64,000 nt of DNA. It comes from an uncultured Thermoleophilaceae bacterium. GTDB lineage: Bacteria; Actinomycetota; Thermoleophilia; Solirubrobacterales; Thermoleophilaceae. Below are positions 8,002 through 36,537 of this stretch, piece after piece (the stretch's first letter is position 1; every line of letters begins with the position of its first letter). The translations under genes were made by a program, and so were the position numbers. The stretch spans positions 1 to 64,000 of the forward strand of contig CAVSNA010000003.1 in the NCBI GenBank assembly GCA_963729205.1, written 5' to 3'. The notes under the pieces were generated by a model. It was not told the origin of the DNA, searched no databases, and saw nothing but the letters and a program-made list of their open reading frames with translations.

Positions 8002-8022
8002 GCGGATAATCTGCTCCGGCTC

Positions 8023-8682
8023 GTGGCCTCGCAGAACCCCGACCCGGAGCAGTCCGACGCTGCCCAGCTCTACGCCGAGCGAAGCATCGGCGATCGCACC
8101 GGCATGGGCAGCCGGCCGGCGGTGGTCGTCGTCGACATGTCGAAGGCGTTCTGCGACACGCAGTACAAGGCCGGCGACGAGGTGGGGCCGACGCTCGACG
8201 CGATCGCTCAGCTGCTGGCGGAGGCGCGGCGCCGAGGCGTTCCCATCTACTACCTCGTGATGGCCTTCGACGCCGCCGATCCGGTGGCCGACGCCGGGGT
8301 GTGGGGCCAGAAGGTTCCGGCGCTGCTCGAGCTCGTGGACTCGGACCCCAACGTGACGACGGTCCATCCCCGCATCGCTCCCGAGCCCGGGGAGACGGTG
8401 ATGATCAAGAAGCGCTCGTCGGCGTTCTTCGGCACCCCGCTGAACGACCTTCTGGGCGAGCGAGGCGTCGACACGCTGATCGTCACCGGCTGCTCCACGT
8501 CCGGCTGCATCCGCGCGACCGCGCTGGATGCCGTGTCGTACGACTACCGGGTGGTGGTGCCCGCGGAGTGCGTCGCCGACCGCGCGCAGGGGCCGCACCG
8601 GGCGAACCTGTTCGACATGAACGCGAAGTACGGGGACGTGGATCCGCTGGCGTCGGTCATCGAGCAGCTGGAGCGGCTCTGA
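8023..8682 (+). CDS. Isochorismatase-family cysteine hydrolase
   Basis: AVVVVDMSKAFC, KKRSSAFFGTPLNDLLGERGVDTLIVTGCSTSGCIRATALDA, with a catalytic Cys in the VTGCST block. Confidence 0.75.
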   Translation: MASQNPDPEQSDAAQLYAERSIGDRTGMGSRPAVVVVDMSKAFCDTQYKAGDEVGPTLDAIAQLLAEARRRGVPIYYLVMAFDAADPVADAGVWGQKVPALLELVDSDPNVTTVHPRIAPEPGETVMIKKRSSAFFGTPLNDLLGERGVDTLIVTGCSTSGCIRATALDAVSYDYRVVVPAECVADRAQGPHRANLFDMNAKYGDVDPLASVIEQLERL

Positions 8683-9597
8683 CGGCTCCCGACGCGCGGA
8701 TCGTCGCCGAGGGCCTGATCTGGCCCGAGGGTCCCGCGCTGCTCGACGACGGGAGGATCGCCTTCGTCGAGACCTACGCGAGCAAGGTGTCGGTGTGGTC
8801 GCCCGAGGAGGGCGTGCAGCTGCTGGCCGACACGGGCGGGGGACCCAACGCCGCCTGTCTCGGCGACGGCGGCTACCTGTACGTGACCCAGAACAGCGGC
8901 CTGGTCGGCGCATGGCGCGCCGAGCGGATGCAGCCGGGCTGCATCCAGCGCGTGTCGATCGCCGACGGCAGCGTGGAGGTCTTCGCCACCGAGGTCGACT
9001 CGCTGACGCTGCGGATGCCGAACGATCTGGCGCTTCGGGCCCGATGGGCGGCTGTACTTCAGCGATCCCGGACTGTGGGACCCGGACGGAGAGCGGCCCG
9101 ATCCTGGGTACATCGTCGCCCTGGACGTGAACACCGGGCTGGGAGAGGTCCTGGTCGAGCTCGAGCCGGTCTATCCGAACGGAGTCGTGGTGGAGCGCGA
9201 CGGCTCGGTCGTCTGGGTCGAGTCCTATACGCGGCGCGTTCGTCGCCTGCTCGCCGGGGGCGAGATCGAGGACCTGGCCACCTTCGAGGATCCGCTGGCG
9301 GTGCCCGATGGCCTGGCGATCGCCGCCGACGGCGACCTCTACGTGACGGCTCTCACCGCCGGAGGCCTGCGCATCGTGGGAGCCGACGGCAGCGACCGGG
9401 GCACGGTCGACGTGGGGGCGGTGCCGAGCAACTGCTGCTTCGCCGGAGACCGGCTCTTCATCACCGATGGGGGCGACGTCAGCGGCACGGCGGGGAGCAC
9501 CGCGCCCAACGGCCGCCTATGGTGCGTGGAGCTTGGCGTGGAAGGGCAGGAGTTGTTTCGCGGGGCCCCGGCAGGTCCCGAAAACCGCAGCGTCTAG
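8683..9597 (+). CDS. SMP-30/gluconolactonase/LRE-family beta-propeller hydrolase, with one frameshift near 9040
   Basis: EGPALLDDGRIAFVE, DGGYLYVT, PNDLA...GRLYFSDPG, PNGVVVERDGSVVWVESY, PDGLAIAADGDLYVT. Confidence 0.6.
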
Positions 9598-9607
9598 GAG
9601 GGATCCG

Positions 9608-10432
9608 ATGGCCGCAGACGGAGCGATTGACGTGTCGGTGTTCCCGTTCACTCCGGAGACCAAGGTTGGCTCGTTCGGACAGACGAAGGTGCTGAGGGAG
9701 AGCCTCCAGCATCTGGGCATATGGGACGACGAATGGTCAGCCGCCGGGCTGGTGGAACGGATGGACGCGGCGGGCGTCGAGGCGGCGATGGTGTGCGCGA
9801 ACGTGGGCACCGGCTGGGAGGTGACGTACGAGTACATCGCCCAGATGCGCGACGAGGTGCCGGGACGGATCCTGCCCAACGCCGGGATCGATCCGCGCGA
9901 CGTCGCGGGCGGGGTGCGCAGGCTCGAGCACGCGATCACCGAGCTCGGCTTCGTGGGCGCCCACAGCTACCCGCACTGGTTCGGCATCTCGCCGGCGGAT
10001 CGTCGTTACTACCCGTTCTATTGGAAGTGCATCGAGCTGGACGTGCCGGTGCAGATCCAGGTCGGGCAGGCGTTTCAGGCCGGCCTCTACAACGTCGGGC
10101 GCCCTGGCGCGATCGACGAGATCGCCGTGGAGCTGCCGGATTTGAAGATCGTCTGCATCCACACGGCCTATCCCTGGGATCGCGAGATGGTGTCCGTGTC
10201 CTGGAAGCACCCGAACGTGTACATCGGCGCCGACTGCTGGCTGCCGCGCGACTGGGCCCCGGAGCTGATCGAGTTCATTCGCGAGCTGGGTCGCGAGAAG
10301 GTCATGTGGGGCACCAACCACCCGGTGATCGACCACGCGGAGTCGCTGGCGGAAGTGGCCGGGCTGGGTCTGGACGACGACACGCAAGCGCTGCTGCTGC
10401 GGGAGAACCTGCGGCGCGTCTACCGGCTCTGA
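9608..10432 (+). CDS. Amidohydrolase-2 (PF04909-type TIM-barrel metal-dependent hydrolase/decarboxylase)
   Basis: VCANVGTGWE, GFVGAHSYPHWFG, VQIQVGQA, IVCIHTAYPW and MWGTNHPVIDH metal-ligand blocks. Confidence 0.7.
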   Translation: MAADGAIDVSVFPFTPETKVGSFGQTKVLRESLQHLGIWDDEWSAAGLVERMDAAGVEAAMVCANVGTGWEVTYEYIAQMRDEVPGRILPNAGIDPRDVAGGVRRLEHAITELGFVGAHSYPHWFGISPADRRYYPFYWKCIELDVPVQIQVGQAFQAGLYNVGRPGAIDEIAVELPDLKIVCIHTAYPWDREMVSVSWKHPNVYIGADCWLPRDWAPELIEFIRELGREKVMWGTNHPVIDHAESLAEVAGLGLDDDTQALLLRENLRRVYRL

Positions 10433-18430: not shown

Positions 18431-19267
18431 ATGCCCAACCTGCCAACTGTCATCCGGCGTGGCCGCGCCCATATCGCCCAGCGGCGGCGGGCCGCAGGCT
18501 TCGCCGCCGCCCTGGACAGCCGGCCACGTGAGGATTTGATCTGCCTCGGCGATCTCAACTACGGCGGCTACATGCTGCCCGAGTCCCTGCTCGGGGAGGA
18601 CAGCGTCTGCTACCTCGCCGGCACGGGCGAGGACATCTCTTTCGACCTTGGCGTGATCGCTCGCTTCGGCTGCAGGGTCTACGCGCTCGATCCGGTGCCG
18701 CGGGCGGCACAGCACGTCGCGGTCGCGGCGGCGCACGAGCCGCGCCTGGTATTCCAGCCCGTGGCCCTCTGGTCGCGTGACGAGACGCTGACCTTCCACG
18801 CCCCGCGCGAGGACGGCTACGTGTCGCAGTCCGCGGTGAACCTGCACGACACGCCGGTGGACTTCAGCGCCCCGGCGCGCTCGGTGGAGTCGCTGATGGC
18901 CGAGCACGGTCACGACCACGTCGATCTGCTGAAGATCAGCGCCGAGGGATCGGAGTACGAGATCGTCGACCACGTGGTCAAGAGCGGGGTCGACGTCAGG
19001 GTCCTGTGTGTCGAGTACGCCCAGCCGGCGCCGACCGAGCGGGTCGAGGCATCGGTGGCGTCGCTCCAGCACGCGGGGTACGTGCTGGTGGCCGCGAGCG
19101 TGCGCACCTGGAACTGGAAGTTGACCTTCGTGGGCCCTGGTGTGGCGCGGGCTGAGGACGCTCGGAAGCAGTCCGGGAGCTCTCATTTGGCCGGCCGTGG
19201 AGCGCGCCGCCCCGACCTCGTCCGCAACCCGCGCCCGAACTCACCGGTCACCAAACGACCTATATGA
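18431..19267 (+). CDS. FkbM-family SAM-dependent methyltransferase
   Basis: LGDLNYGGY, YLAGTGEDISFD and DLLKISAEGSEYEIV (the FkbM-domain DLLKIDxEGxE block). Confidence 0.55.
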   Translation: MPNLPTVIRRGRAHIAQRRRAAGFAAALDSRPREDLICLGDLNYGGYMLPESLLGEDSVCYLAGTGEDISFDLGVIARFGCRVYALDPVPRAAQHVAVAAAHEPRLVFQPVALWSRDETLTFHAPREDGYVSQSAVNLHDTPVDFSAPARSVESLMAEHGHDHVDLLKISAEGSEYEIVDHVVKSGVDVRVLCVEYAQPAPTERVEASVASLQHAGYVLVAASVRTWNWKLTFVGPGVARAEDARKQSGSSHLAGRGARRPDLVRNPRPNSPVTKRPI

Positions 19268-19329: not shown

Positions 19330-20371
19330 ATGCGTGCTGCCGTAACGCAAGCGGTCGGCACGATGGAGGTTGTGGACCTGCCGGAACCCGCTGAGCCGGG
19401 GCCGGGAGAGGTCGTCGTCGGCTCGATGTCGGTTGGCATCTGCGGCTCCGACTACCACTTCTTCTCAGGTCACCTGACCGACGCGGCGGGGGGCGGGGAC
19501 TCCGCCTTCCCCAAGATCCAGGGGCACGAGGTGGGGGGCACGATCGCGGCCGTGGGCCCCGGTTGCCGCGAGGAGCTGGAGGTGGGCGGCACGGTCGCGC
19601 TGTGGCCGCTCAAGGCATGCGGCGAGTGCTACCCGTGCAGCGTGGGGCGGCCCAACGTCTGCCCGAACTTCAACCTGATCGGGATCCACGTGGACGGCGG
19701 CCTGCAGGAGCTGCTGCGCATGCCGCAGGACCAGGTGTTCGCCACCAGCGAGTCGGATTCCGCGCTGGCCGCGATGGCCGAGCCGGTGTCGATCGCCGTC
19801 CGGGCCGTGCACAGGGCGCGGCTCGCGGAGGGCGAGCCCACCGTGATCCTCGGCGCCGGCCCCATCGGCCAGTCGATCTGCCTGCTCGCGCGCGAGCGCG
19901 GGGCGGAGGTGCTGGTGGTGGACCCGCAGGAGAGCCGGCTGGGGCTGAGCGCCGAGATGGGGGCGGAGACGCTGCGTCTGGACCACGCGCGACGAGGTGG
20001 TGAAGGCCGCGCGCGAATGGTCGGGCGGCCTGGGGCCGGTGGTGGTGTTCGACGCGACCGGCGTGCCGGACGCGGTGCGCGCGATGGTGGACATGGCGGC
20101 GTCGGCGGGCCGGGTGGCGCAGGTGGGGATGTCGGGCTCGGAGGTGTCGCTGCGGGTGGGCAGCTTCACCGAGAAGGAGCTCGACATGCTCGGCGTCTGC
20201 TGCTGCGGGGGCGGCGAGTTCGGCGAGGCCGTGGCCGCCGTCGAGCGCAACGGCGACGTGCTGCGGCGGCTGATCAGCCACGAGTTCTCCCTCGAGGAGG
20301 CGCCGGGCGCGATGGCCTTCGCGATGGAGAATCCCTCGGACGTGATGAAGGTGGTGATCCGCGGCGCCTGA
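19330..20371 (+). CDS. Zn-dependent medium-chain alcohol/polyol dehydrogenase, with a frameshift near 19990
   Basis: GICGSDYHFF, GHEVGG, CGECYPCSVGRPNVC and GAGPIGQSICLLA. The C-terminal 120 aa are in a second frame. Confidence 0.65.
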
Positions 20372-20384
20372 CCGCGCCTGGCTT

Positions 20385-21971
<1,587 letters not shown>

Positions 21972-22885: not shown

Positions 22886-23639
<754 letters not shown>

Positions 23640-23663
<24 letters not shown>

Positions 23664-24404
23664 GCGCGACCTCCTCGGTGCCGAGGTAGGCGCGCACGAC
23701 CTGCTCGTCGCGCAGCACCTCGGCGGTGGGGCCGGCGGCGATCAGCTTGCCGAAGTCGAGCACGCCCGTGACCTCGCAGCAGGCGGACACGAGGCTCATG
23801 TCGTGGTCGACGAGGATCACCAGCGCGCCCATGTGCTCGGGGATCGGCTTGATCACGCGGCCCAGGTGCTCGGTCTCCTCGTCGGGAAGGCCGGCCGCCG
23901 GCTCGTCGAGCAGCACCACGCGGGGCTTGCCCACCACGGCGCGGGCGACCTCGACGAGGCGCCGCTCGCGCGCGCCCGAGCGTGCCGACCTTCGTGTCGG
24001 GTCCATCTCGAGCCCGACGAAGTCGAGCGCGCCGAGCACGTCGTCGCGGCGGCTGCGCGCGGCCGAGCTTCGAGTGCTCGTGGACCATCGCGACGTTGTC
24101 GTAGATCGAGAGCTCCTCGATCGCCTGCTCGGTCTGGAAGGTGCGCCGCAGGCCCCAGCGCGCGCGCTTGTAGTGCGGCCATCGCGAGCAGGTCCTCGCC
24201 GAAGGCCTGCACGCGTGCCGGCCGCCGGGTTGACGAAGCCGCTGAGCACGTTGAAGAAGGTGGTCTTGCCGGCGCCGTTCGGGCCGATCAGCCCGCAGGT
24301 GCCGGCCTCGAACTTGACCGTCATCGTCGTCGATGCGGCGTGACCCCGCCGAAGCGCACGGTGAGGTTGTCGATCTCGATCAGTTGCCTCCCCCCGTGCC
24401 GGCG
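23640..24404 (-). pseudogene. ABC transporter ATP-binding protein, LivG-like, with multiple frameshifts
   Basis: IEIDNLTVRFGGV, GLIGPNGAGKTTFFNVLSGF, LLDEPAAGL. Boundaries are approximate. Confidence 0.55.
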
Positions 24405-25477
24405 TGGCCTTCGGTACCAGGCCGGCCAGATCAGCCGCCCCAGCTTCGCCATGTCCCTCGGGAACTGGTAGACGATCCCCTGCGGAGCGGTGAGCAGCAC
24501 CTGGAGCACGCCGATCCCGAACAGGATCGTCAGCCAGTCGTCGTTCAGGCCCCAGTTGTTGAGCAAGGCCGGGAAGCAGCTTGATCAGGACGCCCGCGAT
24601 CACCGCGCCCCAGAGGCTGTAGATGCCGCCCATCAGCACGACCGCCAGCAGGATGATCGAGTCCTGGATGGGGAAGGTGAGCGTGAACAGCTGCCCCGAG
24701 TCGGCCGCCAGCAACCCGCCCGCGACGCCGGTCATGAAGGACGCCAGGGCGAACGCCCAGAGCTTGTAGAGCGTGATGTTCACCCCGGCGGCGAGCGCGG
24801 CGGGCTCGCTCTGGCGAATCGCGGCCCAGGCACGGCCGGGCTTCGCGCGCACGTGTATGAGTGCGAGCAGGAACATCAGGGCCGCGACGATGATCGCGTA
24901 GCGGTAGAAGGCCGCGTCGCTGTGCGCGATGTGCGGGCGGCGGATGTCGGACGCCGCCGCGGTCCGACTCGGTGTGGCCGAGGAAGCCGTGGCCGCCGTT
25001 CGGGAAGTTGGTGGTCCTGAGCGCGACGGTGATGGCGCCGGCGAGCATCAGCGTGATCAGCGCGAGGTAGAGGCCGCTCAGACGCAGCGCCGGCAGGCCG
25101 ACCAGCGTGCCCAGCACCATCGTGATCAGGCCCGAGCCCAGGAGCACCATCGGGAACGGGAGCCCGGTGGCGAAGAACAGCCGCGCCGCCGACCCAGCTG
25201 CCGAGCGCCAGGATCGCGACCTGGCCGAGCGAGACGAGCCCGGTGCGTCCCATCAGGATGCCGAGGCCGAGCGCGACGATCGAGTAGATCGCCGACGCGG
25301 TGACGACGTTGGTCCAGTAGCCGCTGAGCAGCGGCTGCGAGGCCGAAGCAGCACGAACAGGAGCAGCACCGTGATCACGAGCGCCCGGACGCGGTCGCCC
25401 GAGCTCGAGGCGGATCGGCACCCAGGTCGGCCGCCCGTCTCGCGCGTAGCCTTCTGGTGGTCGGTGGCCCCCTCCAT
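24404..25477 (-). pseudogene. ABC transporter permease, LivM-like, with multiple frameshifts
   Basis: Polytopic hydrophobic ORF fragments (YSIVALGLGILMGRTGLVSLGQ, LALITLMLAGAITVAL) in the LivHM permease arrangement. Confidence 0.5.
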
Positions 25478-25509
25478 CGGCTAGCCGGCCCGTCCGGTGA
25501 GCGGCGCTT

Positions 25510-26372
25510 CCGCGCCTACCCGAGAGGACCAGCAGGGCGATGGTGGCGAGCACGAACGGAGTCACGTCGCGGTACTGCGAGATCGACAGGATCGGCGTGA
25601 CCAGGGCGTTGATGAGCCCGACGACCATGCGCGGCGACGAAGGTCACGACGAGCGACCGCAGGCGCGCGATCAGCGTGGCCGCCAGCGACGAGATCACCA
25701 GGAAGGTGAGCGTGACGGCGTCGAGCGCCACGAGGTTGGAGAGCAGCAGGCCGGCCGCGCCGGAGAGCAGGCCCGAGCCGAGCCAGGCGGCCGCCTCGAC
25801 GCGCCGCACGGGCACGCCCAGCGTGGCGGTGATCTCGCGGTCGTTGGCGAGCGCCCGCATCGCGGTGCCGAGGTTGGAGAAGCGCAGGAAGGCGGCGGTG
25901 ACGACCGTCACCAGGATGCCGAACCCGACGCAGATCACCTGGGTGTAGTTGACCAGCACGTTGCTGACCTCGAAGCCGTGATTCGACGTGGGCAGGACCA
26001 TCGACCTGGCCTTGTCGCTCCAGATCAAGTCCATCACGCCGAGCAGGATCAGCGCCAACCCGAGCGTGGCGGTGGCTTTGACGAGCGGGTCACGGCCCGA
26101 CAGCGGCGGACCGAAGAGGACGCCGTAGAGCAGCGTCAGCACGCCCTCCGAAGAGGACGCATACGACATAGGCGGGGCCCGACGGCCCAGCCGTTGTGGT
26201 TGATGAGCTGCCAGGCGATGAGGGCGCCCATGGCTCCCACGGCGCCGAACGCGAGGTTCAGTACGCCGGTTGCCCTGTAGAGGACCACCATGCCGACCCC
26301 GGACAGCGAGTACACGCCACCCAGGGCCAGCCCGGTGATGATGAACGGCTTGAAGTCCTCCCAGCTTGGCAT
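25510..26372 (-). pseudogene. ABC transporter permease, LivH-like, with frameshifts
   Basis: N-terminus MPSWEDFKPFIITGLALGGVYSLSGVGMVVLYRATGVLNLAFGAV and C-terminal block VGLINALVTPILSISQYRDV. Confidence 0.55.
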
Positions 26373-26439
26373 TTGGAACCTTGGACGCCCTCTTCTCCTG
26401 AACTACCTGACTTTGTCTCTACCTACCTATCACTAACCA

Positions 26440-27849
26440 GTCGGCGGTAGGTCCGTGCTGGCCTGCTGGAGGCTCGGATCCGGCTGCTCGATCTCGCGCA
26501 CCTGCGCGATCGTCGGGATCCGCGGCCGAGATCTGGAAGCACTCGCTCCTTGATCGACCATCTTGCCGTTATTCGGCGTCGTGGTCCAGTCCACGTTGTT
26601 CGGGATGTGGAGCGGTGCGTCGCCGTAGTACCAGGGCTTGCAAAGGATGTCGGTCTTGACTGCCCTTCAGGTCCTTGATGGCGCGTGTTCACGCTCTTGA
26701 TCGTAGTAGTGTCGCCCTGTGATCGTCTCCAGCGCCTTGACCATGAACTGGCCCATGCTGAATCCCATCTGGCTGAAGCTGCCGAGCCCGCCGCTGACAG
26801 CTCTTGCCGTACTTGGCGAAGACCGCCCGGTAGAGCGTGCTCTGCGGACCCGGAGCGTCCGTCACGTTCAGCTCCGCGTTCACGAGCAGCTTGCCGTCCC
26901 ACTGCGTCCCCAGCGCCTTGGCGACGAAGTCGGTGTTGCACGGCGTCGAGCAACCCCACGCCTTGACCCGGTCCTGCAGGCCCTGCTGCTGCGCGGCCTG
27001 GAGGATCTTCAGCGCCTCGGGCGGCGTGAAGTTCAGGACGACGCCGCCGTCGGGGCCCGCGGCCTGCACGAGCTTGAGGGCGACGGAGTTCGCGTCCTGA
27101 ATCGGCACGTTGTCCTTGAACTGCTGGATCGGCACGTTGAGGCTCTTCGCGACGGCCGTCGGGCCTGCCGCGATGTAGCCGGTGCCGGGGACGTTCGACT
27201 GGTCGAACGCGATCTTCTTCGCGCCCGCGCGGACCACGCCCTGCACGGCGCCGTCCGAGCTGTAGCGCGGACCCATGTTCGGGGCGGCGCTGTTCGGCGT
27301 GCCGTAGCACTCCGGGGCGATACCGGCGTCGATCTCGTTGATGCCGAGCGACTCCCAGTACTTGTGATCGACCGCGCACTCGATGATGCTGAAGCCGCCG
27401 ACGATCCCGACGACCTTGTCGGTCTGGATCAGCTTGTTGGCCAGGCCGGCGATCTGAGCCGGGTCGGTCTGCTCGGTCTCGATCGTGTAGCTGATCGGGT
27501 GACCGTTGATGCCGCCGTTGTCGTTGACGCAGTTGAAGTACGCCTGCGCCATCGTTGGCGCCGTCGGTGAAGTCCGTACCCGGCTGCTTCGTCACGATCG
27601 CGCCGAGCTTGATCGGGGTACCGGTGGCCTTCACACCGGGCTTGGTCCCGCACTTGGTGACGTCGCCGGCCGCGGGAGCCGCTGTGGTGCTGGCTCCGCC
27701 GCCCGTCGTCGCCGCCGGCGCGGTCGCCGCGGTGGTGCTGCTCTTGTTACTGCTGCCGCACGCGGAAAGCGTCACGGCGAGGCCGGCTGCGAGTACGACG
27801 ACCAACGCAACCGTCCAGGTCTTTCCGAGCCCAAACTTTCTACGCACTG
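26440..27849 (-). pseudogene. ABC transporter substrate-binding lipoprotein (periplasmic-binding-protein type-1 / LivK-like), frameshifted at both ends
   Basis: Lipoprotein signal (LAVTLSACGSS), a Thr/Ala-rich linker, and the binding-protein core IKLGAIV...KVVGIVGGFSIIE... Confidence 0.6.
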
Positions 27850-28162
27850 GTGCCCCTCCTCCTCTATTTGACCTAACGCCCGCTGCGCGAAGAACCTGCG
27901 CCGCGGACCCCTGAGTGGCCGTACGAGCTTCTCGACGACGCATCAAGCTTGTGCTTCGTGGCCTCGTCGCGCGCGCGTGCGCAGCGCGCAGGCGAGACCT
28001 CCCTCACCGCACCCTCCTTGGCCCGCTGTCCTTGCTGCCGCAAAACCTCGCGCGCGATCCCCAGCTGAGGTGGGAAGAGCGCAGAAAAGGCTGGAGGTCG
28101 AGTGGTAGCGACTCTGCTTTGGCCTCGGTCACCGTCGGTTGGCGCCGGTTGCGGTCCGGGTG

Positions 28163-28203
28163 GAGGCGCGAAGCTATCACAGCTATATCTGGGTATGCAA
28201 CTG
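28163..28203. promoter_or_regulatory. Conserved roughly 40-bp motif GCGCGAAGCTATCACAGC-N6-TCTGGGTATGCAAC, first of two direct copies
   Basis: Repeated almost identically at 29372-29413. It sits in a locally AT-rich intergenic stretch that also carries a tandem CTGACAATTT x2 (28201-28238), which is -35-like. Confidence 0.35.
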
Positions 28204-28421
28204 ACAATTTCAAATGCCCCTGACAATTTATTCGCGCCCCCGGATGCGACCGTTCGCGGGCCGGTCCGACGCCCACGGCCGCCCGTCGCGGGGACGGTGA
28301 AACAGCGTGTTCAAGCGGCCTCCGGACCCTTCGCTCGTCTTGACGCAGACGAGGCGGGCGCGTGCGGGATCCACGTCAGAGGTGGGCGGGCGGCACACGT
28401 TTTCCACTCCCTCGGGGCCGC

Positions 28422-29300
28422 TCAAGGCTTCTCCGCTCCGTCGCCCAGGCCAAGCAGCCGCACGGCGTTCTCCTTGAGGATCAGCGGCCGCACGTCGGGG
28501 TTGATCTCGAGCCGCTCGAAGTCGCGCAGCCAGCGGTCGGGCGTGATCATCGGGTAGTCGGATCCGAACAGCACCTGGTGCTTGAGCAGCGTGTTCGCAT
28601 AGTGCACAAGCTGCGGCGGGAAGTACTTCGGCGACCAGCCGGAGAGGTCGATGTAGACCTCCGGCTTGTGCATCGCGATCGAGATCGCCTCGTCCTGCCA
28701 GGGGAACGACGGGTGGGCCAGCACGATCGGCATCTCGGGGAAGTCGACGGCCACGTCGTCCACGTGCATCGGGTTCGAGTACTTGAGCCGTATCCCGCCG
28801 CCGCCGGGGAGGCCGGAGCCGATGCCGCTGTGCCCGGTATGGAAGAGGGCCGGCAGGCCGGCCTCGGCGATCACCTCGTAGAGCGGGTAGGCCATCCGGT
28901 CGTCCGGGAAGAACTCCTGGATGTTGGGGTGGAACTTGAACCCCTTCACGTTGTGGTCGCGAATCAGCCGGCGGGCCTCCTCGGCGGCGCCCGGGCGCGC
29001 GGGGTGAACGCTCGCGAACGGGATCAGCACGTCCGGGTTGGCCGCGGCCGCCGCGGCGATCTCCTCGTTCGGCACCGGGTCCCGGTGGCCGGGACCCCAG
29101 TCCACGGTGAACACCACGCAGGCCATCTTCAGCTCGCGGTAGCGGGCCACCACGTCGTCGACGGTCGGCTCGCCGCCGCCGTCGCGGAAGTACTTCTTGG
29201 CCGCAGCGCGCAGCTCCGGCGGCATGGGGTCGTGCCCCTCCCGCGAGACCTCGGTGTGCACGTGCACGTCGATGGCCTCCACGGCGGCGAGGTCGATCAC
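28422..29300 (-). CDS. Amidohydrolase-2 (PF04909) metal-dependent hydrolase
   Basis: DVHVHT, FKFHPNIQEF, LFHTGH, VLAHPSFPW, FGSDYP. Intact ORF. Confidence 0.75.
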   Translation of the reverse strand: MIDLAAVEAIDVHVHTEVSREGHDPMPPELRAAAKKYFRDGGGEPTVDDVVARYRELKMACVVFTVDWGPGHRDPVPNEEIAAAAAANPDVLIPFASVHPARPGAAEEARRLIRDHNVKGFKFHPNIQEFFPDDRMAYPLYEVIAEAGLPALFHTGHSGIGSGLPGGGGIRLKYSNPMHVDDVAVDFPEMPIVLAHPSFPWQDEAISIAMHKPEVYIDLSGWSPKYFPPQLVHYANTLLKHQVLFGSDYPMITPDRWLRDFERLEINPDVRPLILKENAVRLLGLGDGAEKP

Positions 29301-29371
29301 TGCCGTCTCCGTGGAGACTCTCCTGTGGCCTCAATCACCAATTGGGGTGCTGCTTGGTGGTGCAGGGGTGG

Positions 29372-29413
29372 GGCGCGGCGAAGCTATCACAGCGCATCAT
29401 CTGTATGCAACCG
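29372..29413. promoter_or_regulatory. Second copy of the GCGAAGCTATCACAGC...CTGTATGCAAC motif. The inverted partner TTGCATACAG lies at 29487-29497.
   Basis: Read directly from the sequence, in the divergent amidohydrolase/GntR intergenic region. Confidence 0.4.
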
Positions 29414-29499
29414 CTCCGCGTTAGGGTGCGGCCAAGGGGGTGTTGCCCCTTGTTTAGCGCAGATTAAGCGCCCGTTGCGAGGGCTCTTGCATACAGCGA

Positions 29500-30334
29500 T
29501 TGCGGGCTGTACGCTGGCCCGGCGGCGCCCCCGAGAATGAGCTCTTGAGCAGCAAAAGCGAAGGAACCTCGCAGTCGACCCGGGCACTCCTGCGGCTGCG
29601 CGAGCTGCTCCTGAGCGGAGAGCTCGAGCCGGGCACGCGCATGTCTGAGCTGCCGCTGGTCGAACGGCTCGGCGTCTCCCGCACGCCGTTGCGGCTCGCG
29701 CTCGCCACCCTCGAGCACGAGGGGCTGCTCGAGCTGCTGCCGGGGGGCGGCTACGCCACGCGGCAGTTCAGCCAGGCCGACGTGAGCGACGCGATCGAGC
29801 TGCGCGGCGTGCTGGAGGGCACCGCCGCGAGGTGGGCGGCCGAGCGCGGCGTCACGCGCCGCGAGCTGGCCAGGATGTCGGGGCTGATCGACCGCATGGA
29901 CGTGGAGGTGCACAAGGCCGACTACGGCTCCTTCGTCAGCTACATGGGACTGAACGAGAGCTTCCACGTGCTACTGGTGGAGGCCGCGCGCAGCCCCATG
30001 CTGGAGCGCGCGATCGCGGACATCGTCGCGCTTGCCGTTCGCCTCCTCGAGCGCGTTCGTGCTCGCCGAGGCCGAGCTGCCCGAGTCGAGGCGGATCCTC
30101 CTGGTCGCGCAGGACCATCACCGGGCCATCGTCGAGGCGATCCAGGCTCGTGAGGGCGCACGGGCGGAGGGTCTCGCGCGCGAGCACGCGCGACTGGCCC
30201 GCCGCAACCTCGAGATCGCGATGAAGAATCACGACGTGCTCGAGCGCATGCCCGAGGCCTCGCTGATCAGGCTGCCCGGCAGGTCGCAGCCGGAGACCGA
30301 GACGGAGACGGCGGCCAGCCCGCCCGTGAGTTGA
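29500..30334 (+). CDS. GntR-family transcriptional regulator (FadR-like C-terminal FCD domain), with a frameshift near 30035
   Basis: The winged HTH GTRMSELPLVERLGVSRTPLRLALATLEHEGLL is the GntR signature. The C-terminal helical domain is in a second frame. Confidence 0.65.
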
Positions 30335-30335
30335 G

Positions 30336-31013
30336 ATGAGCTCCGGCCTCAGCCTCCCGCTCGCGCTCAGCCCGCTCGATCAGGTGCTGAAGCGCGCCGG
30401 GGCGCACATGGCCGAGCGCCAGGGCTGGCTGGTGGCCGCCGACTTCGGCTCGCTGGCCGCCGAGCTCGCCGTCAGCCGGGCCGCCGCGGGGCTCGCGGAC
30501 GTGTCGAGCATCGCCAAGTTCGAACTGCGAGGCAGCGAGCACGAGCTCGCCGAGATCCATCCGTCGGAGCGCTCGTTCGCCTCCCGTCGCGGCGTGCGGG
30601 CACGCGACGCCTGGTGGTGCCCGCTGTCACCCGAGCTGCTGCTGGTGCTGGCCATGCCGGGAGCCAAGGCCAGGGTCAGGCAGGAGGTGGAGGAGCTCGC
30701 CGCGGGAAGCGACGTGCGGATGGTCGACGTCACCTCCGAGCGCGTGGCCGTCTGCCTCCTCGGACCCGCGGCGCGCGAGGTGCTCTCGCGCGCGGGGGCG
30801 CAGGCCCTGCTGCCGGGCACGGTCCGCGCCGAGTCGGTGGAGGGGATACCCACGCTCGTGCTGCACGAGGACGAGCAACGCTGGCTGCTGGTGGCGCCGG
30901 CCGCGGACGCCGCCGAGCTCTGGCAAGCGCTGTCGGACGCGGGCGCGCCGTTCGGCCTGGCGTACGTGGGCTCGGACGCGCTGCAGCATCTCCTGGCCGC
31001 GCGCGACAGGTAG
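30336..31013 (+). CDS. GcvT-fold / sarcosine-oxidase-gamma-like small protein (225 aa)
   Basis: ADVSSIAKFELRG resembles the aminomethyltransferase-fold signature strand. The size and layout resemble SoxG-family proteins. Assignment is by weak motif similarity only. Confidence 0.45.
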   Translation: MSSGLSLPLALSPLDQVLKRAGAHMAERQGWLVAADFGSLAAELAVSRAAAGLADVSSIAKFELRGSEHELAEIHPSERSFASRRGVRARDAWWCPLSPELLLVLAMPGAKARVRQEVEELAAGSDVRMVDVTSERVAVCLLGPAAREVLSRAGAQALLPGTVRAESVEGIPTLVLHEDEQRWLLVAPAADAAELWQALSDAGAPFGLAYVGSDALQHLLAARDR

Positions 31014-31060
31014 CGCGGCGGCGCTCAGCCGGGTCGTCGGTTGCGAAGCGTCGCGGCCCG

Positions 31061-31190
31061 GATCGCAATAAGGGCGGCCCGGTTGGGAGCGGCGATCCGA
31101 GATTGAAGGATTTGGTGGGCTATAGCACCCACAATCCTTCAATCGTTGATCCTCGCGGCCTCGGGTCGTCCTCATTGCTGGTCGGGCTCC
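31061..31190. repeat. Palindromic element of about 120 bp, copy A (AT-rich core GATTGAAGGATTTGGTGGGCTATAGCACCCACAATCCTTCAATC)
   Basis: A second copy lies at 60815-60935. The outer arms GCAATAAGGGCGGCCCG / CGGGTCGTCCTCATTGC are also inverted. It lies between convergent gene ends. Confidence 0.6.
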
Positions 31191-31219
31191 GCCACGGCGA
31201 CCGCCCCGGCCGAGCCGAC

Positions 31220-32197
31220 CTAAGCCCTGGCGGTCTGCCCCAGCGCCGCCCGCACTCCGGCGATCTGCTGCGCGGTGACGCCACAGCAGCCGCCGACGAT
31301 CTGGGCTCCGGCGTCGATCCAGGTGGAGGCGAGGCCGGCGTAGTCCTGCGGGCCCACCGTGGTGTCGAACTCCCAGTGCGCGCCGGCGCCGTGGCCGAGG
31401 TTGGGGTAGCAGCCGATCGGCAGCGACGTCTGACCGCGCAACCAGGCGACGGTCTCCTCGAGCTCGTCAGCGGGCACGCAGTTCACGAGGATCGCCTTCA
31501 CGCCGAGGGCCTCGAGCCGCTCGGCTCCGTGGCGGAAGTCGGCCGGATCGGTGTCCGGGGTCACGTTGCCGTCCGCGTCGGACATGCCCTCGGGGCGGCG
31601 GCGGAAGCTCGTCCAGACCGGCAGGCCCGTGTCGCAGACCATCTCGATCGCCTGGAGCGCCAGGCCGTCGGGGATCGCCTCGAGCGTCTCGAGGATCACG
31701 AGGTCGGGCGGCTCGTCGTGCCACAGCCACGAGAGCAGCTCGAGCCGCCCGGTGGCGCGCTCGTCGAGCAGGCTCGAGTTGATGCAGAAGGCCGTGGCGC
31801 AGTCGCCAACGCGCCCTGCCTCGTCGATCGCCTGCCGCGCCAGCCGCACGCCGAGCCGAGCGGCGTCGAGCCAGAGCGAGCTGCGGCTCGGCCCGGCGGG
31901 CTCGGTGCCGGCCACCTCCGCCGCCTCGAGCACCGACCACGTGTTGGTGGAGATCACGTCGCAGCCCGCGGCCACGTAGCGGCGGTGCACCTCGAGGACC
32001 TCCACCGGGCCCTGGAACAGGGTCCAGGTGCCCCACGGCTCGCGCCTGCGGGCGCGGTCCTCCGATTGCACCTGCTGGAGCTCGGTGGCCACGCCGCCGT
32101 CGAGCAGCACGGGGCCGCCCGCGGCGAGCGCGCCCTCGATCCGCTCGTACGCGCGCGAGAGCGGCAGTTGCCCCAGGTAGTGGCCGCCGCCCGCCAT
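31220..32197 (-). CDS. Homocysteine S-methyltransferase-domain protein (PF02574; MmuM/BHMT-like)
   Basis: VLLDGGVATEL, AGCDVISTNTW, ILVNCVP and the zinc-binding GGCCGVT motif. Its ATG overlaps the upstream stop (ATGA at 32195-32199). Confidence 0.75.
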   Translation of the reverse strand: MAGGGHYLGQLPLSRAYERIEGALAAGGPVLLDGGVATELQQVQSEDRARRREPWGTWTLFQGPVEVLEVHRRYVAAGCDVISTNTWSVLEAAEVAGTEPAGPSRSSLWLDAARLGVRLARQAIDEAGRVGDCATAFCINSSLLDERATGRLELLSWLWHDEPPDLVILETLEAIPDGLALQAIEMVCDTGLPVWTSFRRRPEGMSDADGNVTPDTDPADFRHGAERLEALGVKAILVNCVPADELEETVAWLRGQTSLPIGCYPNLGHGAGAHWEFDTTVGPQDYAGLASTWIDAGAQIVGGCCGVTAQQIAGVRAALGQTARA

Positions 32198-34020
32198 CAG
32201 CTGGCCACCCGCCGCTCGCGCGGCGTCGAGCCGTTCTCCCGGGTGATCTCGATCAGGTAGGCGATCATCATGTTCACGTCTCCAAAACGAAGGTGGTAGG
32301 CGTCGGAGAGCTCCTCGACGCGGCGGATCTGTTCAGCGTATTCACCGAACAGCGGGCTGAACTCGAAGAAGCTGAAGTCGACCACTCGCCCCGACAGGCC
32401 CTTCGCCTGCAGCTGCTTCAGCGTCTCGCGCTGGCTGAGGATCGAGAGCTGCATCAGGTAGGCGCGGCCGTCCGGCTCGAGCAGGCTCGGCAGCAGGCTG
32501 AGCAGGTGGTCGAACAGGCCGCGGCCCCAGTAGTCGAGCGGGCGGTGGCTCGTGAGCTGCTGGAACGGGTCGTTGGGCATCTGGTAGAGGCTCGCGACGA
32601 CCACGTCGTAGCGGTGCTCCGGGTCCCACGGGTAGAGGTCGACCTGCTCGCCCGACACGCGGTCGGCCACGCCGTTGCGGAAGGCGTTGCTGAGCGTGTT
32701 GGCCACCGCGCGCTTGTCGATGTCGATCGCGTGCACCTGGGAGGCGCCGTTCAGCGCGAGCTGCGTGGCGAGCAGGCCCGTCCCGCAGCCGACGTCCAGG
32801 CAGCGCGCGCCCTCGCCGACGCCGTGGGTGTAGAGGTGCTTCCAGATCAGGAAGCTGCCGGCGGTCGGCACGAACACGTCGGGCTCGACGATCAGCTCGG
32901 GCATTGGCAGCGGATAGAGGCGCCGGCCACGCTCGTCGAGCCACGGCTCGAGCTGGACGCGCTCGCCCAGCGCGGAGGCGCCGGCCTCATCGGTCCAGCC
33001 GTCGTCGGCGCTGGCGTGCCTGCGCCCGGGGCGGGTGCCGGCGAGGCGCGTCTTGGCCGCGCCGATGTGGTGGGGCCGGACGCCGCAGCAGCCGCCGATG
33101 ATGTCGGCGCCGTCGTCGCGCCAGGCCGCCGCCAGCTCGGCGAACTCCTCGCCGCCGATGCGGTGGTCGAAGGCCCAGCCCGACTCGGTGTAGTAGCCGA
33201 GGTTGGGGTAGACGCCCAGCGGCAGGTCGGTGAAGTCGCGCAGCCAGGGCAGCATTCCCGCGACGTGATCGGGCGGGATGCAGTTGATCAGCAGCGCCGC
33301 CACGCCCATCTCCTCGAAGCGGCGGGCGGCGCGGCCGAAGAGGTCGCCCTCGGGACCGCCCCAGTGCTCGCCGAACACGCCGCAGAGACCATGCCGGCAG
33401 CGGCGGAAGCTGAGCCAGACGGGGTAGCCGCTGTCCACCAGCGTCTGCACCGCCTGGAAGGTGAGCTCGTGGATGAGCGACATCGTCTCGAGCAGGACGA
33501 AGTCGGGCGGCTCGTCCTCGAATACGCGCGCGAGGAGCTCGAAGCGCTCCAGGCCCTGCTCGTCCGAGACCTCGCCGTGAAGGCTGAAGGCCACCGCCGT
33601 GTCTCCCGACCTACCGACGTCGGCGGTGGCCTTCCGGGCCAGGCCGATCGCCCGGCGCGCCAGCTGCATCCAATCGGCCGGCGGGGTGCCCGTCGAGCCG
33701 TGCTCGCCGTTCATGGCGTTCTGGATGCCCCAGGTGTTGGTCGAGATCACGTCGCAGCCCACCTCGGCGTAGCTGCGGTGCACGCGCGTGACCACGTCGG
33801 GCGCGTTGAGCAGCGCCCAGGTGCCCCACATCGCGTCGTCGCGCAGCTCGTAGCCGGGCGTCTCGATCTCCTCGAGCTCGGTGGCCATGCCGCCGTCGAG
33901 AACCACGCACTGCTCGCGGGAGAGAAGCTGCTCGATGCGGCTGTAGGCGGGAGAGTGATGCCGCGGCACGCCGCCGCTGCGGGCGATCGTCTCGGCGCGG
34001 CTGCGCGACGGCACGGCCAT
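32197..34020 (-). CDS. Fusion protein: N-terminal homocysteine S-methyltransferase domain plus C-terminal class-I SAM-dependent (PrmA-like) methyltransferase domain
   Basis: N-terminal half: VVLDGGMATELE, VGCDVISTNTWGI, LINCIPP, IIGGCCGVRPHHI. C-terminal half: LDVGCGTGLLATQLALNGASQVHAIDIDKRAVANTLSNAFRNGVADRV (SAM motif I / post-I). Continuous 607-aa ORF with no frameshift. Confidence 0.75.
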   Translation of the reverse strand: MAVPSRSRAETIARSGGVPRHHSPAYSRIEQLLSREQCVVLDGGMATELEEIETPGYELRDDAMWGTWALLNAPDVVTRVHRSYAEVGCDVISTNTWGIQNAMNGEHGSTGTPPADWMQLARRAIGLARKATADVGRSGDTAVAFSLHGEVSDEQGLERFELLARVFEDEPPDFVLLETMSLIHELTFQAVQTLVDSGYPVWLSFRRCRHGLCGVFGEHWGGPEGDLFGRAARRFEEMGVAALLINCIPPDHVAGMLPWLRDFTDLPLGVYPNLGYYTESGWAFDHRIGGEEFAELAAAWRDDGADIIGGCCGVRPHHIGAAKTRLAGTRPGRRHASADDGWTDEAGASALGERVQLEPWLDERGRRLYPLPMPELIVEPDVFVPTAGSFLIWKHLYTHGVGEGARCLDVGCGTGLLATQLALNGASQVHAIDIDKRAVANTLSNAFRNGVADRVSGEQVDLYPWDPEHRYDVVVASLYQMPNDPFQQLTSHRPLDYWGRGLFDHLLSLLPSLLEPDGRAYLMQLSILSQRETLKQLQAKGLSGRVVDFSFFEFSPLFGEYAEQIRRVEELSDAYHLRFGDVNMMIAYLIEITRENGSTPRERRVAS

Positions 34021-34049
34021 CAGCTACGCGCTCGCTGCCTGGAAAACGA

Positions 34050-34123
34050 CTGTATACAGAGCACCCTCACACGACCTCTCCTCAGGGTCGGAATATAGAG
34101 GTTGAGCGCTTATTTGTATACAG
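34050..34123. promoter_or_regulatory. Two copies of the GntR-type palindrome CTGTATACAG / TGTATACAG (34050-34059 and 34115-34123) in the divergent promoter region
   Basis: A perfect 10-bp palindrome of GT-N-AC type, in the AT-rich stretch between the methyltransferase operon start and the alcohol dehydrogenase start. Confidence 0.45.
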
Positions 34124-34161
34124 GCCTTTAAGGTGCGGTCTCAGCCTGTACTCTGTCGCGC

Positions 34162-35187
34162 GTGAGGGCCGCGCAGATGACCGAATACGGGCGCCCGCTC
34201 GAGTTCGTCGAGCTTCCGACGCCCGAGCTCACCGACCCCGATCACGTGCTCGTGAGGATCGGCGGCGCGGGCGTGTGCGCCACGGACCTGCACGCGATGG
34301 ACGGCCACATGGAGCCGGCCGGGGTGTCGCTGCCGCGCGTGCTCGGTCACGAGAACGCCGGCTGGGTGGAGGCGGTGGGCGACTTCGTCTCCACCGTCGA
34401 GGTGGGCGACGCGGTGGTCCTCTACCCGCCCTACAGCTGCGGGCTGTGCGTGCCGTGCAGGCGCGGGCGGGACATGCACTGCGAGCGGCACGAGTTCACC
34501 GGCCTGTCCGTGGACGGCGGCTTCGCCGAGTACGTGCGGGTCAGCGAGCGCTCGATCATCAAGCTGCCGCCGGGCCTCGAGCCCGCGGACGTCGCCCCCC
34601 ACGCGGACGCCGGGATCACCGCCTACCACGCGGTTCGGCGCATGGCGCACCTGATGCAGCCCGGCACCACCACCGCCGTGATCGGCATCGGCGGCGTGGG
34701 ACACATCGCCGTGCAGCTTCTGCACGAGCTTGGCTCGAGCAGGGTCGTGGCCATCGAGACCGACGAGCGCCGGCGGGCCCTCGCGCGCGAGGTAGGGGCA
34801 GACGAGGTGGTGGAGGGCGGAGACGGCGCGGAGGCCGCGCTGCGTGAGCTCACCGACGGTCGCGGGCCGGACGTGGTGATCGACTTTGTGGGCACGGACG
34901 CAACGCACGCCGCCGGGCTGGCCATGCTCGCGAGCGCCGGCACGTACTCCGTGGTGGGTTACGGGGGCACGATCACGCTGCCCTCGCTGATGCTGATCGC
35001 GAACGAGCAGAGCGTGGTGGGCAACCTCGTGGGCAGCTGGACCGACCTCTGGGAGCTCGTGCAGCTGCACGCCGCCGGGAAGCTCGTGCTGCGCACGGAG
35101 ACCCATCCGCTGAGCGCCGTGAACGACGTGCTGGCCAAGCTCCGCGAGGGCGAGGTCACCGGGCGCGCCGTGCTCGTGCCGGGCTGA
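34162..35187 (+). CDS. Zn-dependent medium-chain alcohol dehydrogenase
   Basis: GVCATDLH, GHENAG, CGLCVPCRRGRDMHC, GIGGVGHIAVQL. Intact ORF. Confidence 0.75.
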   Translation: MRAAQMTEYGRPLEFVELPTPELTDPDHVLVRIGGAGVCATDLHAMDGHMEPAGVSLPRVLGHENAGWVEAVGDFVSTVEVGDAVVLYPPYSCGLCVPCRRGRDMHCERHEFTGLSVDGGFAEYVRVSERSIIKLPPGLEPADVAPHADAGITAYHAVRRMAHLMQPGTTTAVIGIGGVGHIAVQLLHELGSSRVVAIETDERRRALAREVGADEVVEGGDGAEAALRELTDGRGPDVVIDFVGTDATHAAGLAMLASAGTYSVVGYGGTITLPSLMLIANEQSVVGNLVGSWTDLWELVQLHAAGKLVLRTETHPLSAVNDVLAKLREGEVTGRAVLVPG

Positions 35188-35246: not shown

Positions 35247-36537
35247 ATGAGCGCACAGCACAACGACACGAGGCTCTGGCACCCGTTCAGCGACATGAGC
35301 GCGGTGCGGCATGCCGAGCTCGTGATCGATCGGGGCGAGGGGGTCTGGGTGTTCGACGAGGACGGCAACCGCTACCTCGACGCGACGGCCAGCCTCTGGT
35401 ACGCCAACGTCGGCCATGGGCGGCGCGAGATCGCGGACGCCGTGGCGGCGCAGCTCGCGAAGCTCGAGGCCTACTCGATCTTCGGCGACCTGGCCAACCG
35501 CCCGGCGCTCGAGCTGGCGGAGCGCCTGACGTCGCTGGCGCCGATGTCCTCGCGCGTCTTCCTCACGTCCGGCGGCGGCGACTCGATCGACACGGCCGCG
35601 AAGCTGGCCCGCCGCTACTGGTACGAGCTCGGGCAGGGCGACCGCACCGTGATCCTCAGCCGCACGGCCGGCTATCACGGCACGCACGGCTTCGGCACCT
35701 CGATCGGCGGCATCGACGCCAACCGGGTCGGCTTCGGGCCGCAGCTCGAGTCGGCGCAGGTCGCGCACGACTCGGTCGACGCGCTGCGTGCCGCGATCGA
35801 CACGCTCGGCGCGGAGCGCGTGGCGGCCTTCTTCGTGGAGCCGGTGATCGGCGCCGGGCGGAGTCCACCCGCCCGTCGAGGGCTACATCGAGGGCGTGGC
35901 GGAGGTCTGCCGCGAGAACGGTGTCCTGCTCGTGGTGGACGCGGTGATCTGCGGCTTCGGCCGGCTCGGCACCTGGTACGCCATCGAGCGCTGGGACGTG
36001 GTGCCGGACATGATCGTCTTCGCCAAGGGCGTGACCAGCGGCTATCTGCCGCTTGGCGGCGTGATCGTCTCCGACACCGTGGCGGAGCCGTTCTGGGAAG
36101 CGCCCGGCGCGCCGATGCTGCGCCACGGGCCGACGTACTCCGGCCATCCGGTCTGCTGCGCCGCGGCGCTGGCGAACATCGACCTGCTGGAGAGCGAGGG
36201 CCTGCTCGAACGAGCCCGTGAGCTCGAGCGGCCGCTGATGGACGCGCTCGAGCCACTGCTCGCCCACCCGGGCGTGAGCGAGGTGCGGGGCGGCACGGGC
36301 CTGATGGCCGCCGTGGAGCTCGACGAGGAGGTCTTCCCCGATCGCGTGCAGGCCGCCGCGGAGGTGGCCAGGCTGGCGCGCGCCGAGGGAGTGCTCGCCA
36401 GGCCGTTTGCGGCCGGGCTCGCCCTGTCGCCGCCGCTCGTGGTGGACGTCGAGCAGCTCCAGATGATCGCCGACGCGATCTCCGCGGCGCTCGACAACTG
36501 CGCCACGGGTGTAGCCGCTTCGCAGCAGAGTCGTTAG
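35247..36537 (+). CDS. Class-III (omega) aminotransferase, with a frameshift near 35860-35890
   Basis: SLWYANVGHG, LTSGGGDSIDTAAKLAR, LLVVDAVICGFGRLG, FAKGVTSGYLPLGGV (PLP lysine region). Confidence 0.65.

Follow-up and report, generated by a model that had tools for sequence, protein, structure and literature searches.

The fusion gene and its two domains

The DNA analysed here, called the window throughout, is a 64,000-nucleotide stretch from an uncultured Thermoleophilaceae bacterium. On its minus strand, positions 32197-34020 encode a 607-residue protein in which a zinc homocysteine S-methyltransferase domain is joined, through a linker of about 50 residues, to a class-I S-adenosylmethionine (SAM) methyltransferase domain. 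An earlier note on this DNA had described the protein as a fusion of two complete domains. The open reading frame (ORF) listing and hidden Markov model (HMM) scans agree with this, the zinc, homocysteine and SAM residues are conserved, and our gene calls reproduced every gene named at the locus. The region around the fusion has about 70% G+C, and it is matched best by metagenome-assembled genomes of Thermoleophilaceae and Solirubrobacterales. The fusion gene runs into that of HMT2, a stand-alone PF02574 paralogue of 325 residues (31220-32197, minus strand; PF02574 at 1.9e-38). Their junction reads AGC TGA TGG, so that stop and start share one nucleotide (TGATG), where the note had read an ATGA coupling. 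Converging on HMT2 from the plus strand is the gene for a 225-residue GcvT-fold, SoxG-like protein, here called GcvTs (30336-31013; PF01571 at 1.4e-20, no C-terminal barrel). A GntR/FCD transcription regulator lies directly upstream of GcvTs (29500-30334, plus strand), frameshifted into two ORFs (29500-30153 and 30032-30334). Divergent from the regulator, an amidohydrolase-2 gene (Amidohydro_2, PF04909 at 8e-48; 28422-29300, minus strand) heads the operon of a Liv-type ABC transporter (23158-27946, minus strand), whose Peripla_BP_6 binding protein, two permeases and two ATPases were recognised from heavily frameshifted ORFs. On the other side of the fusion, the HMM scans identified a divergent Zn-dependent alcohol dehydrogenase (Zn-ADH; 34162-35187, plus strand) and a frameshifted class-III (omega-) aminotransferase (35247-36537, plus strand). 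About 70 nt before the start codon of the fusion, in the 141-bp intergenic region that separates it from Zn-ADH, there is a match to a sigma-70-like promoter (34092-34120, minus strand), a weak one at one site against 0.4 expected.

Frameshifts split many genes of the window, including those of the Liv transporter, the regulator and the aminotransferase, and such neighbours could suggest that the fusion too is an artefact, created when a sequencing error in an error-prone long-read contig ran two genes together. Other assemblies refute this. A JGI contig (L001) carries a 97%-identical gene of 607 residues in identical synteny, with every neighbour gene intact; there the regulator has 230 residues, the Liv transporter genes are whole and the aminotransferase has 429 residues with generic omega-aminotransferase matches. 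No fewer than five independent assemblies hold exact or near-exact copies of the fusion at the full length of 606-607 residues, and the exact proteins of the window lie on an NCBI/ENA contig of 121 kb. The architecture is shared by more than 100 homologues (58-97% identity), all of them from Thermoleophilia or Rubrobacteria. Since the C-terminal domain family is moreover found almost solely in fused form, we give an artefact practically no credence. The note had argued that a lost stop codon was an unlikely cause because a single indel cannot join two ORFs in frame. The conclusion stands on the independent assemblies; the argument was unnecessary and is not general, as the fusion gene itself lies in several pieces in L023, a near-identical contig of a metagenome-assembled genome (MAG; 8001-9826). 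The frameshifts of the window and of L023 look like long-read indel error rather than pseudogenisation.

Both domains were present in all 120 best database matches (59-97% identity). When the C-terminal half alone was searched against 1.8 billion representatives, it returned 224 clusters at 1e-10 or below, nearly all of fusion length or fragments thereof, and clearly separate stand-alone relatives were only about 30% identical. To judge from these matches, the C-terminal domain family occurs essentially only within the fusion, which is therefore a selected unit. The genomes carrying it belong to Thermoleophilaceae, Solirubrobacterales and Rubrobacteraceae or are MAGs labelled just Actinomycetota or Actinomycetes; no cultured isolate was among the genome matches.

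The N-terminal PF02574 match spans residues 39-324 (33049-33906, minus strand; 9.6e-44) and has a TIM-barrel fold. Residue conservation was judged from 108 aligned sequences, the window protein and 107 homologues that share 58-97% identity with it. The zinc ligands C247, C311 and C312 (motifs NC... and GGCCG) and the homocysteine motifs DGGMATEL and STNTW are invariant. HMT2, about 42% identical to this domain, also has the zinc cysteines; it is confined to the window clade, and related loci elsewhere have instead a second fusion or a core-MetE, a zinc homocysteine methyltransferase without folate domain. An insert of the fusion at residues 205-226 (33343-33408, minus strand), SFRRCRxGxCGV(F/Y)GxHWGGPEGD, is likewise invariant, including C208, C213 and H219, and is missing from the stand-alone paralogue. 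In the AlphaFold model its residues 209-218 have a predicted local distance difference test score (pLDDT) below 50; our guess is that the insert forms a second metal or substrate site. By sequence, the closest NCBIfam model for the PF02574 domain is of the MmuM/HMT type, and the domain is at least as close to the homocysteine domain of MetH as to MmuM or BHMT. Assignment to MmuM, BHMT, YitJ or MetH was rejected, every score lying under the curated cut-off. Of MetH only the homocysteine module is matched, and the annotated neighbourhoods contain no corrinoid- or pterin-binding gene.

The C-terminal domain (residues ~375-600; 32221-32898, minus strand) has a HemK2/Mtq2-like fold. Class-I methyltransferase models match residues 388-555 (PrmA 8.9e-12, MTS 2.1e-9, PRK14968 5e-18), and the closest relatives are HemK2/N6AMT1/Mtq2, with N6AMT1 at 1.5e-7 by sequence. 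The label 'PrmA-like' given in the note was therefore imprecise; the PrmA equivalog TIGR00406 is matched at 49.5 bits against a cut-off of 183, and over profile positions 161-233 of 296 only. The hallmarks of the class are in place: a Rossmann-like fold, a GxGxG motif I (D409, G411, G413, G415) and an acidic motif II (D433), all five residues invariant in the 108 sequences. Motif IV differs. The (N/D)PPY of HemK, PrmC and Mtq2 is absent, the NPPY position aligning to S-L-Y-Q in a motif that reads SLYQMP, of which just Q480 and P482 are invariant across paralogues; an invariant SHRPxDxWGR loop follows. Both the motif IV region and this loop are of low confidence in the AlphaFold model (overall pLDDT 78, predicted template modelling score 0.55); the folds of the two halves are confirmed. 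PrmA, PrmC and CpaM were rejected as identities for the domain, their matches being generic and partial and NPPY being absent. Methionine S-methyltransferase (plant MMT, bacterial MmtN) is no nearer to the domain than other class-I enzymes are. It is firmly supported that the fusion joins, as a selected unit, a competent-looking homocysteine methyltransferase to a competent-looking SAM-binding methyltransferase domain.

GcvTs and the neighbourhoods of the fusion

GcvTs has profile matches to GcvT (2e-16), DMGO, SoxA and SoxG (7e-8), bearing out the GcvT-fold, SoxG-like description of the note. It has the truncated GcvT fold of the SoxG type and not the three-domain cloverleaf of GcvT, LigM and DmdA, as PF01571 is present without the C-terminal barrel (PF08669). 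LigM and DmdA were rejected as homologues, since neither gave a sequence match and the structure is nearer to SoxG and GcvT. Residues 1-50 (window 30336-30485) are the most conserved part of the family, yet are modelled with a pLDDT below 50; this suggests that they may be an interface that becomes ordered on a partner.

We read 17 fusion-carrying loci with precomputed Pfam annotation and screened 16 genome loci by tblastn, clustering of gene calls and spot Pfam checks. An HMM of GcvTs found the gene near the fusion in every non-Rubrobacter locus with a long enough flank. The adjacency holds from 97% down to 54% identity and over at least six locus types, and in one protein (P0043) GcvTs forms the C-terminal part of a natural triple fusion. 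We also drew a separate sample of GcvTs from its closest large clade (218 residues, 60-68% identity), comprising 30 metagenome loci. Core-MetE (PF01717 only, 366 residues) lies immediately upstream of GcvTs in 25 of them; four are of the window type, with HMT2 and, contig permitting, the fusion, and the remaining locus is truncated. The partner of GcvTs is thus always a zinc homocysteine methyltransferase. We regard it as firmly supported that SoxG-like GcvTs proteins have zinc homocysteine methyltransferases without a donor-binding domain as their conserved partners.

The arrangement around the fusion differs between clades (in what follows, <> marks divergent, >< convergent and a hyphen same-strand genes). 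Type A, the window clade (window, L001, L017, L021, L023, L038, L056), reads aminotransferase-ADH <> fusion-HMT2 >< GcvTs-GntR <> Amidohydro_2-Liv ABC. Type A' (L063) reads fusion >< GcvTs-coreMetE-GntR <> Amidohydro_2-Liv ABC and has both the fusion and core-MetE. In type B (L002/3, L010-12) the order is PaaK-like ligase <> fusion-GcvTs, with a 4-nt overlap between the last two, followed by MFS, PobA, PcaIJ, PcaHG and PcaB; PobA, in this type as in the core-MetE-type operon described below, is a genuine 4-hydroxybenzoate 3-monooxygenase, scoring 603-611 bits where the cut-off is 351. Type C (L005-7) reads GcvTs <> fusion-MetK with overlapping frames. Type C' (L025-29, L061 and the P0071 contig) reads GcvTs-fusion1-GAF/LuxR-fusion2, followed by MetK in L026-29 only and by core-MetE in all, with an intervening MFS gene in L061 or several other genes in L025. 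Type D (L004, L020, L062) reads soxA-soxG-soxB-FTHFS (L004, L062) or FolD (L020)-DAO-fusion, and the fusion is the last or near-last gene of its run; these are the only loci where GcvTs occurs with soxA, soxB and soxD, none of which is in the window. Type E, from Rubrobacteraceae (L013-15, L019, L022, L024), lacks GcvTs in the flanks covered; in two of its loci (L013, L024) MetK is a neighbour of the fusion, and two have an OpuAC betaine-type transporter at a distance of 6 kb. In L005-7 and L026-29 the fusion is followed directly by MetK, the frames overlapping or abutting in the gene calls. Up to three paralogous homocysteine methyltransferases share one locus, and B12-binding genes were seen among the called or annotated genes of none. 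Clade A (at least 77% identity) is the only one in which Zn-ADH and the aminotransferase go with the fusion; as they are confined to the closest relatives, these two cannot be assumed to be pathway members.

The core-MetE-type operon reads GntR-coreMetE-GcvTs-MFS-PobA, with a divergent unit ALDH-MaoC-Amidohydro_2-Liv ABC. Its amidohydrolase is 75-80%, its binding protein 69-73% and its regulator about 66% identical to those of the window, and these genes are orthologous. Type B and the core-MetE type also share an orthologous backbone (GntR2 79%, MFS 67%, PobA 73%, PcaI 81%), next to which GcvTs is paired with the fusion in one and with core-MetE in the other. The swap is a non-orthologous displacement between two zinc homocysteine methyltransferases. 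The operon of GntR, core-MetE, GcvTs, MFS and 4-hydroxybenzoate 3-monooxygenase is very conserved in soil metagenomes (L030 6899-8657; L031-L060), and its core-MetE and GcvTs genes abut or overlap.

Further features concern regulation and the flanks. A GntR/FCD regulator also stands beside GcvTs and Amidohydro_2 in the L026, L030 and L063 types. In three loci a LuxR/GerE-type regulator overlaps the stop of the first fusion paralogue (L025 4655-5848, L026 4936-5871, L061 5705-6859), with a GAF domain detectable in L025 and L061; the gene is an alternative regulator to GntR for the module. Three proteins (P0129, P0161, P0166) read through into this regulator, either by error or as real fusions. 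In Rubrobacteraceae, each of the four loci with an upstream flank encodes, immediately before the fusion, a protein of 290-311 residues (L014 6861-7796; the same gene in L019 and L022; L015 by gene-call cluster only). It has no Pfam or NCBIfam match, and its VVDICCSYG faintly resembles methyltransferase motif I. The sole Rfam match in the loci scanned is a c-di-GMP-I-GGC riboswitch in L005 (3703-3784, minus strand; 67 bits, gathering score 59), which lies a few kb away from the fusion, ahead of a 31-residue ORF and a GGDEF/EAL gene, and is probably unrelated. The amidohydrolase of the window has no NCBIfam match, and its sole relative in the PDB is the uncharacterised BB4693. Elsewhere in the window lie a second Amidohydro_2 paralogue (9467-10432) and a frameshifted Zn-ADH (19363-20359) with 59-67% identity to the ADH in the aromatic cluster of L030, which is of the core-MetE type; the two may be scattered remnants of such a cluster. 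An FkbM-family methyltransferase (18431-19267) and fragments of a GMC oxidoreductase, a family that includes choline dehydrogenase (21115-21858), are found a few kb past the ABC transporter; their link to the locus is not established.

A possible methyl relay and its rivals

The reading of the locus that we tentatively prefer, at somewhat less than even chances, is a cobalamin-independent methyl relay that runs from a donor through homocysteine, methionine and SAM to an acceptor. In such a relay the PF02574 domains (the N-terminal half of the fusion, and HMT2) would activate homocysteine as thiolate and methylate it to methionine, the methyl group coming from a methylated nutrient or a folate-bound one-carbon unit with GcvTs as the donor-side partner. 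MetK, encoded elsewhere in this genome, would convert methionine to SAM. The fused HemK2-like domain would then pass the methyl group of SAM to an acceptor and release S-adenosylhomocysteine, the source of regenerated homocysteine. Carrying the first and third steps on one chain would keep the carrier cycle of homocysteine, methionine and SAM running at high methyl flux. The donor may be a methoxy-aromatic acid, acting via tetrahydrofolate (THF), or else glycine betaine, and the acceptor may be glycine, which would yield sarcosine, or a different N-nucleophile. The complex of GcvTs with the methyltransferases, the way the flux runs and the choice of donor and acceptor are inferences.

The note had proposed a methyl shuttle, and this part remains the best reading, reinforced by MetK directly downstream of the fusion and by the sarcosine-oxidase operons in relatives; Zn-ADH and the aminotransferase, which the note listed with the locus, are linked only in the closest clade. 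The substrate of MetK is the product of the N-terminal domain and its product the substrate of the C-terminal domain, so that in the order of the pathway MetK falls between the activities joined in the fusion. Methyl or one-carbon units are set free by the pathways in which the module occurs: sarcosine oxidase together with folate enzymes, the 4-hydroxybenzoate/protocatechuate clusters, and a transporter of betaine type. Of the substrates that the note had considered, the betaine or sarcosine type is matched at least equally, in sister loci, by methoxylated aromatic acids (PobA, pca), and nothing specific to S-methylmethionine (SMM) or dimethylsulfoniopropionate (DMSP) was found. In the Sox-linked loci, a betaine-type donor might methylate homocysteine and SAM might methylate glycine to sarcosine, which the adjacent oxidase would burn. 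In the aromatic clusters, the module sits where a vanillate or anisate demethylase is expected and might represent a new O-demethylation route. In a more specific version, GcvTs would form a new class of cobalamin-independent demethylase together with a zinc homocysteine methyltransferase that has no folate domain (core-MetE, HMT2 or the fusion). This demethylase would transfer methyl groups of aryl methyl ethers (4-methoxybenzoate, vanillate) or N-methyl osmolytes to homocysteine, possibly via bound folate; the HemK2-like domain would then discharge the methyl group of SAM, for example onto glycine to give sarcosine, so that homocysteine is catalytic. We hold this version to be unlikely.

Several observations weigh against the relay. 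No MetK, core-MetE, Sox, PobA or pca genes were found when we looked for them in the 64 kb of the window, so that its own substrate cannot be named. An Rfam scan at the gathering threshold detected no SAM, THF or B12 riboswitch in the window and eight related loci and gave no independent regulatory clue. Against the MmuM/HMT equivalog (PRK09485, cut-off 215 bits) the fusion scores 121.9 and HMT2 93.5 bits, and against BHMT/Bmt (PRK07534, cut-off 338 bits) they score 46.6 and 36.5 bits; with PF02574 scores under the curated cut-offs, donor specificity cannot be read from the sequence. GcvTs does not retain the GYTGEDGFE folate motif in the profile alignment, nor does it have the GcvT C-terminal domain, so that folate binding by this protein is putative at most. 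The fusion of Rubrobacteraceae has no nearby GcvTs. Since the pair of core-MetE and GcvTs works without a class-I domain, the partnership does not explain what that domain does in the fusion, and, having lost NPPY, the domain might do no more than bind SAM. The relay would cost one ATP, converted to adenosine, pyrophosphate and phosphate, per methyl group. Finally, no family member has a known activity, and donor and acceptor are guesses.

The locus could instead serve an anabolic, cobalamin-independent methionine synthase, in which GcvTs would hold 5-methyl-THF in place of the pterin and B12 modules of MetH or the N-terminal domain of MetE, and the class-I domain would be a SAM sensor without methyl transfer. 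The pairing of GcvTs with both kinds of folate-domain-less homocysteine methyltransferase is consistent with this, as are MetK and core-MetE in the same clusters, the nearness of the PF02574 domain to the homocysteine domain of MetH and the loss of NPPY; MesD/MesX, a core methionine synthase that needs an accessory protein, provides a precedent (PMC7857596). However, the module stands in catabolic operons (PobA/pca, Sox, transporters) under GntR/FCD or GAF-LuxR regulators, the SAM or THF riboswitch that would point to such a synthase was not found, and the GcvT folate motif is not recognisable in GcvTs. An invariant motif IV region and SHRPxDxWGR loop exceed the needs of a sensor domain, and up to three paralogous homocysteine methyltransferases per locus also speak against a synthase, which we consider improbable. 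The fusion might also act alone on an unrelated substrate, for example in thiol or protein methylation, with GcvTs, regulator, amidohydrolase, ADH and aminotransferase of the window not functionally linked to it. The wide variation of neighbourhoods among clades would fit, and so would the lack of a nearby GcvTs in Rubrobacteraceae, the opposite strand of GcvTs in the window, convergent with HMT2 and the fusion, and the more frequent coupling of GcvTs to core-MetE than to the fusion. Yet GcvTs adjacency is retained across the whole range of identities and locus types, the two genes overlap at stop and start in the L002 type and are physically fused in P0043, and the fusion and core-MetE displace each other; we think a lone function quite unlikely.

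A cycle of SMM and SAM homeostasis on one chain appears less probable again. The class-I domain would S-methylate methionine in the manner of MMT or MmtN and the PF02574 domain would methylate homocysteine from the sulfonium compound, as in the plant SMM cycle and yeast Sam4/Mht1, or, as a variant, act on selenium compounds. Such a cycle would account for the MmuM/HMT type being the closest NCBIfam model, for MetK being adjacent in relatives and for the loss of NPPY, which fits a non-nitrogen acceptor such as a thioether. The aminotransferase and dehydrogenase beside the fusion in the window clade may also resemble MmtN-type DMSP clusters. These two genes are nevertheless not conserved with the fusion, and a DMSP route would lack a pyridoxal phosphate-dependent decarboxylase. 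The net reaction of the cycle would be futile, and GcvTs, the displacement by core-MetE and the Sox and aromatic contexts would stay unexplained.

If the relay is correct, a SoxG-like protein, a zinc homocysteine methyltransferase and a SAM methyltransferase would form a conserved three-part module for cobalamin-free methyl harvest. It would give a function to SoxG-like 'orphan' proteins and to folate-domain-less core-MetE, and the fusion, by coupling the regeneration of methionine to SAM-dependent methylation in one compact enzyme, would be of interest to biocatalysis with SAM recycling. The anabolic alternative would amount to a new type of B12-independent methionine synthase, and the demethylase version to a fifth O-demethylation route, widespread in abundant soil Thermoleophilia. 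Thermoleophilia (Solirubrobacterales, Thermoleophilaceae) are abundant in soils and hardly cultured, and to our knowledge it is not known how they process methoxylated lignin monomers and methylated osmolytes.

Comparison with known systems

Full-text searches of the literature found no description of the fusion architecture, nor of the pair of a GcvT-like protein and core-MetE. The fusion consists of known domains in an uncharacterised, lineage-wide architecture and partnership. Compared with MmuM and plant HMT, BHMT and the homocysteine module of MetH, it falls under the curated equivalog cut-offs, has the invariant CxxxxC...H insert carries a fused class-I methyltransferase and has no pterin or B12 modules. 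In contrast to HemK2/N6AMT1/Mtq2, PrmC and PrmA, its C-terminal domain has xxxQxP (SLYQMP) where these have the substrate-binding NPPY, followed by the SHRPxDxWGR loop, and, unlike HemK2/N6AMT1/Mtq2, the fusion has no Trm112-type partner. The replaced NPPY and the missing partner make N-methylation of glutamine or adenine by this domain unlikely.

GcvTs differs from SoxG and the GcvT family in that it mostly occurs without nearby soxA, soxB and soxD, is coupled to zinc homocysteine methyltransferases and lacks the GcvT C-terminal barrel. It resembles LigM, DesA and DmdA in being a GcvT-fold protein in a methoxy-aromatic/protocatechuate gene context, where the product of demethylation is to be passed to one-carbon metabolism; for LigM, a dedicated MTHFR recycles 5-methyl-THF (PMC11868366). 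The closest parallels in organisation are MesD/MesX (PMC7857596) and the split MetH/MtgBCDE systems (PMC12478193), in which a zinc homocysteine methyltransferase without a donor domain of its own is encoded beside an accessory protein that supplies the methyl group. The partner here, however, is SoxG-like, neither DUF1852 nor a corrinoid protein, and a SAM methyltransferase is fused on.

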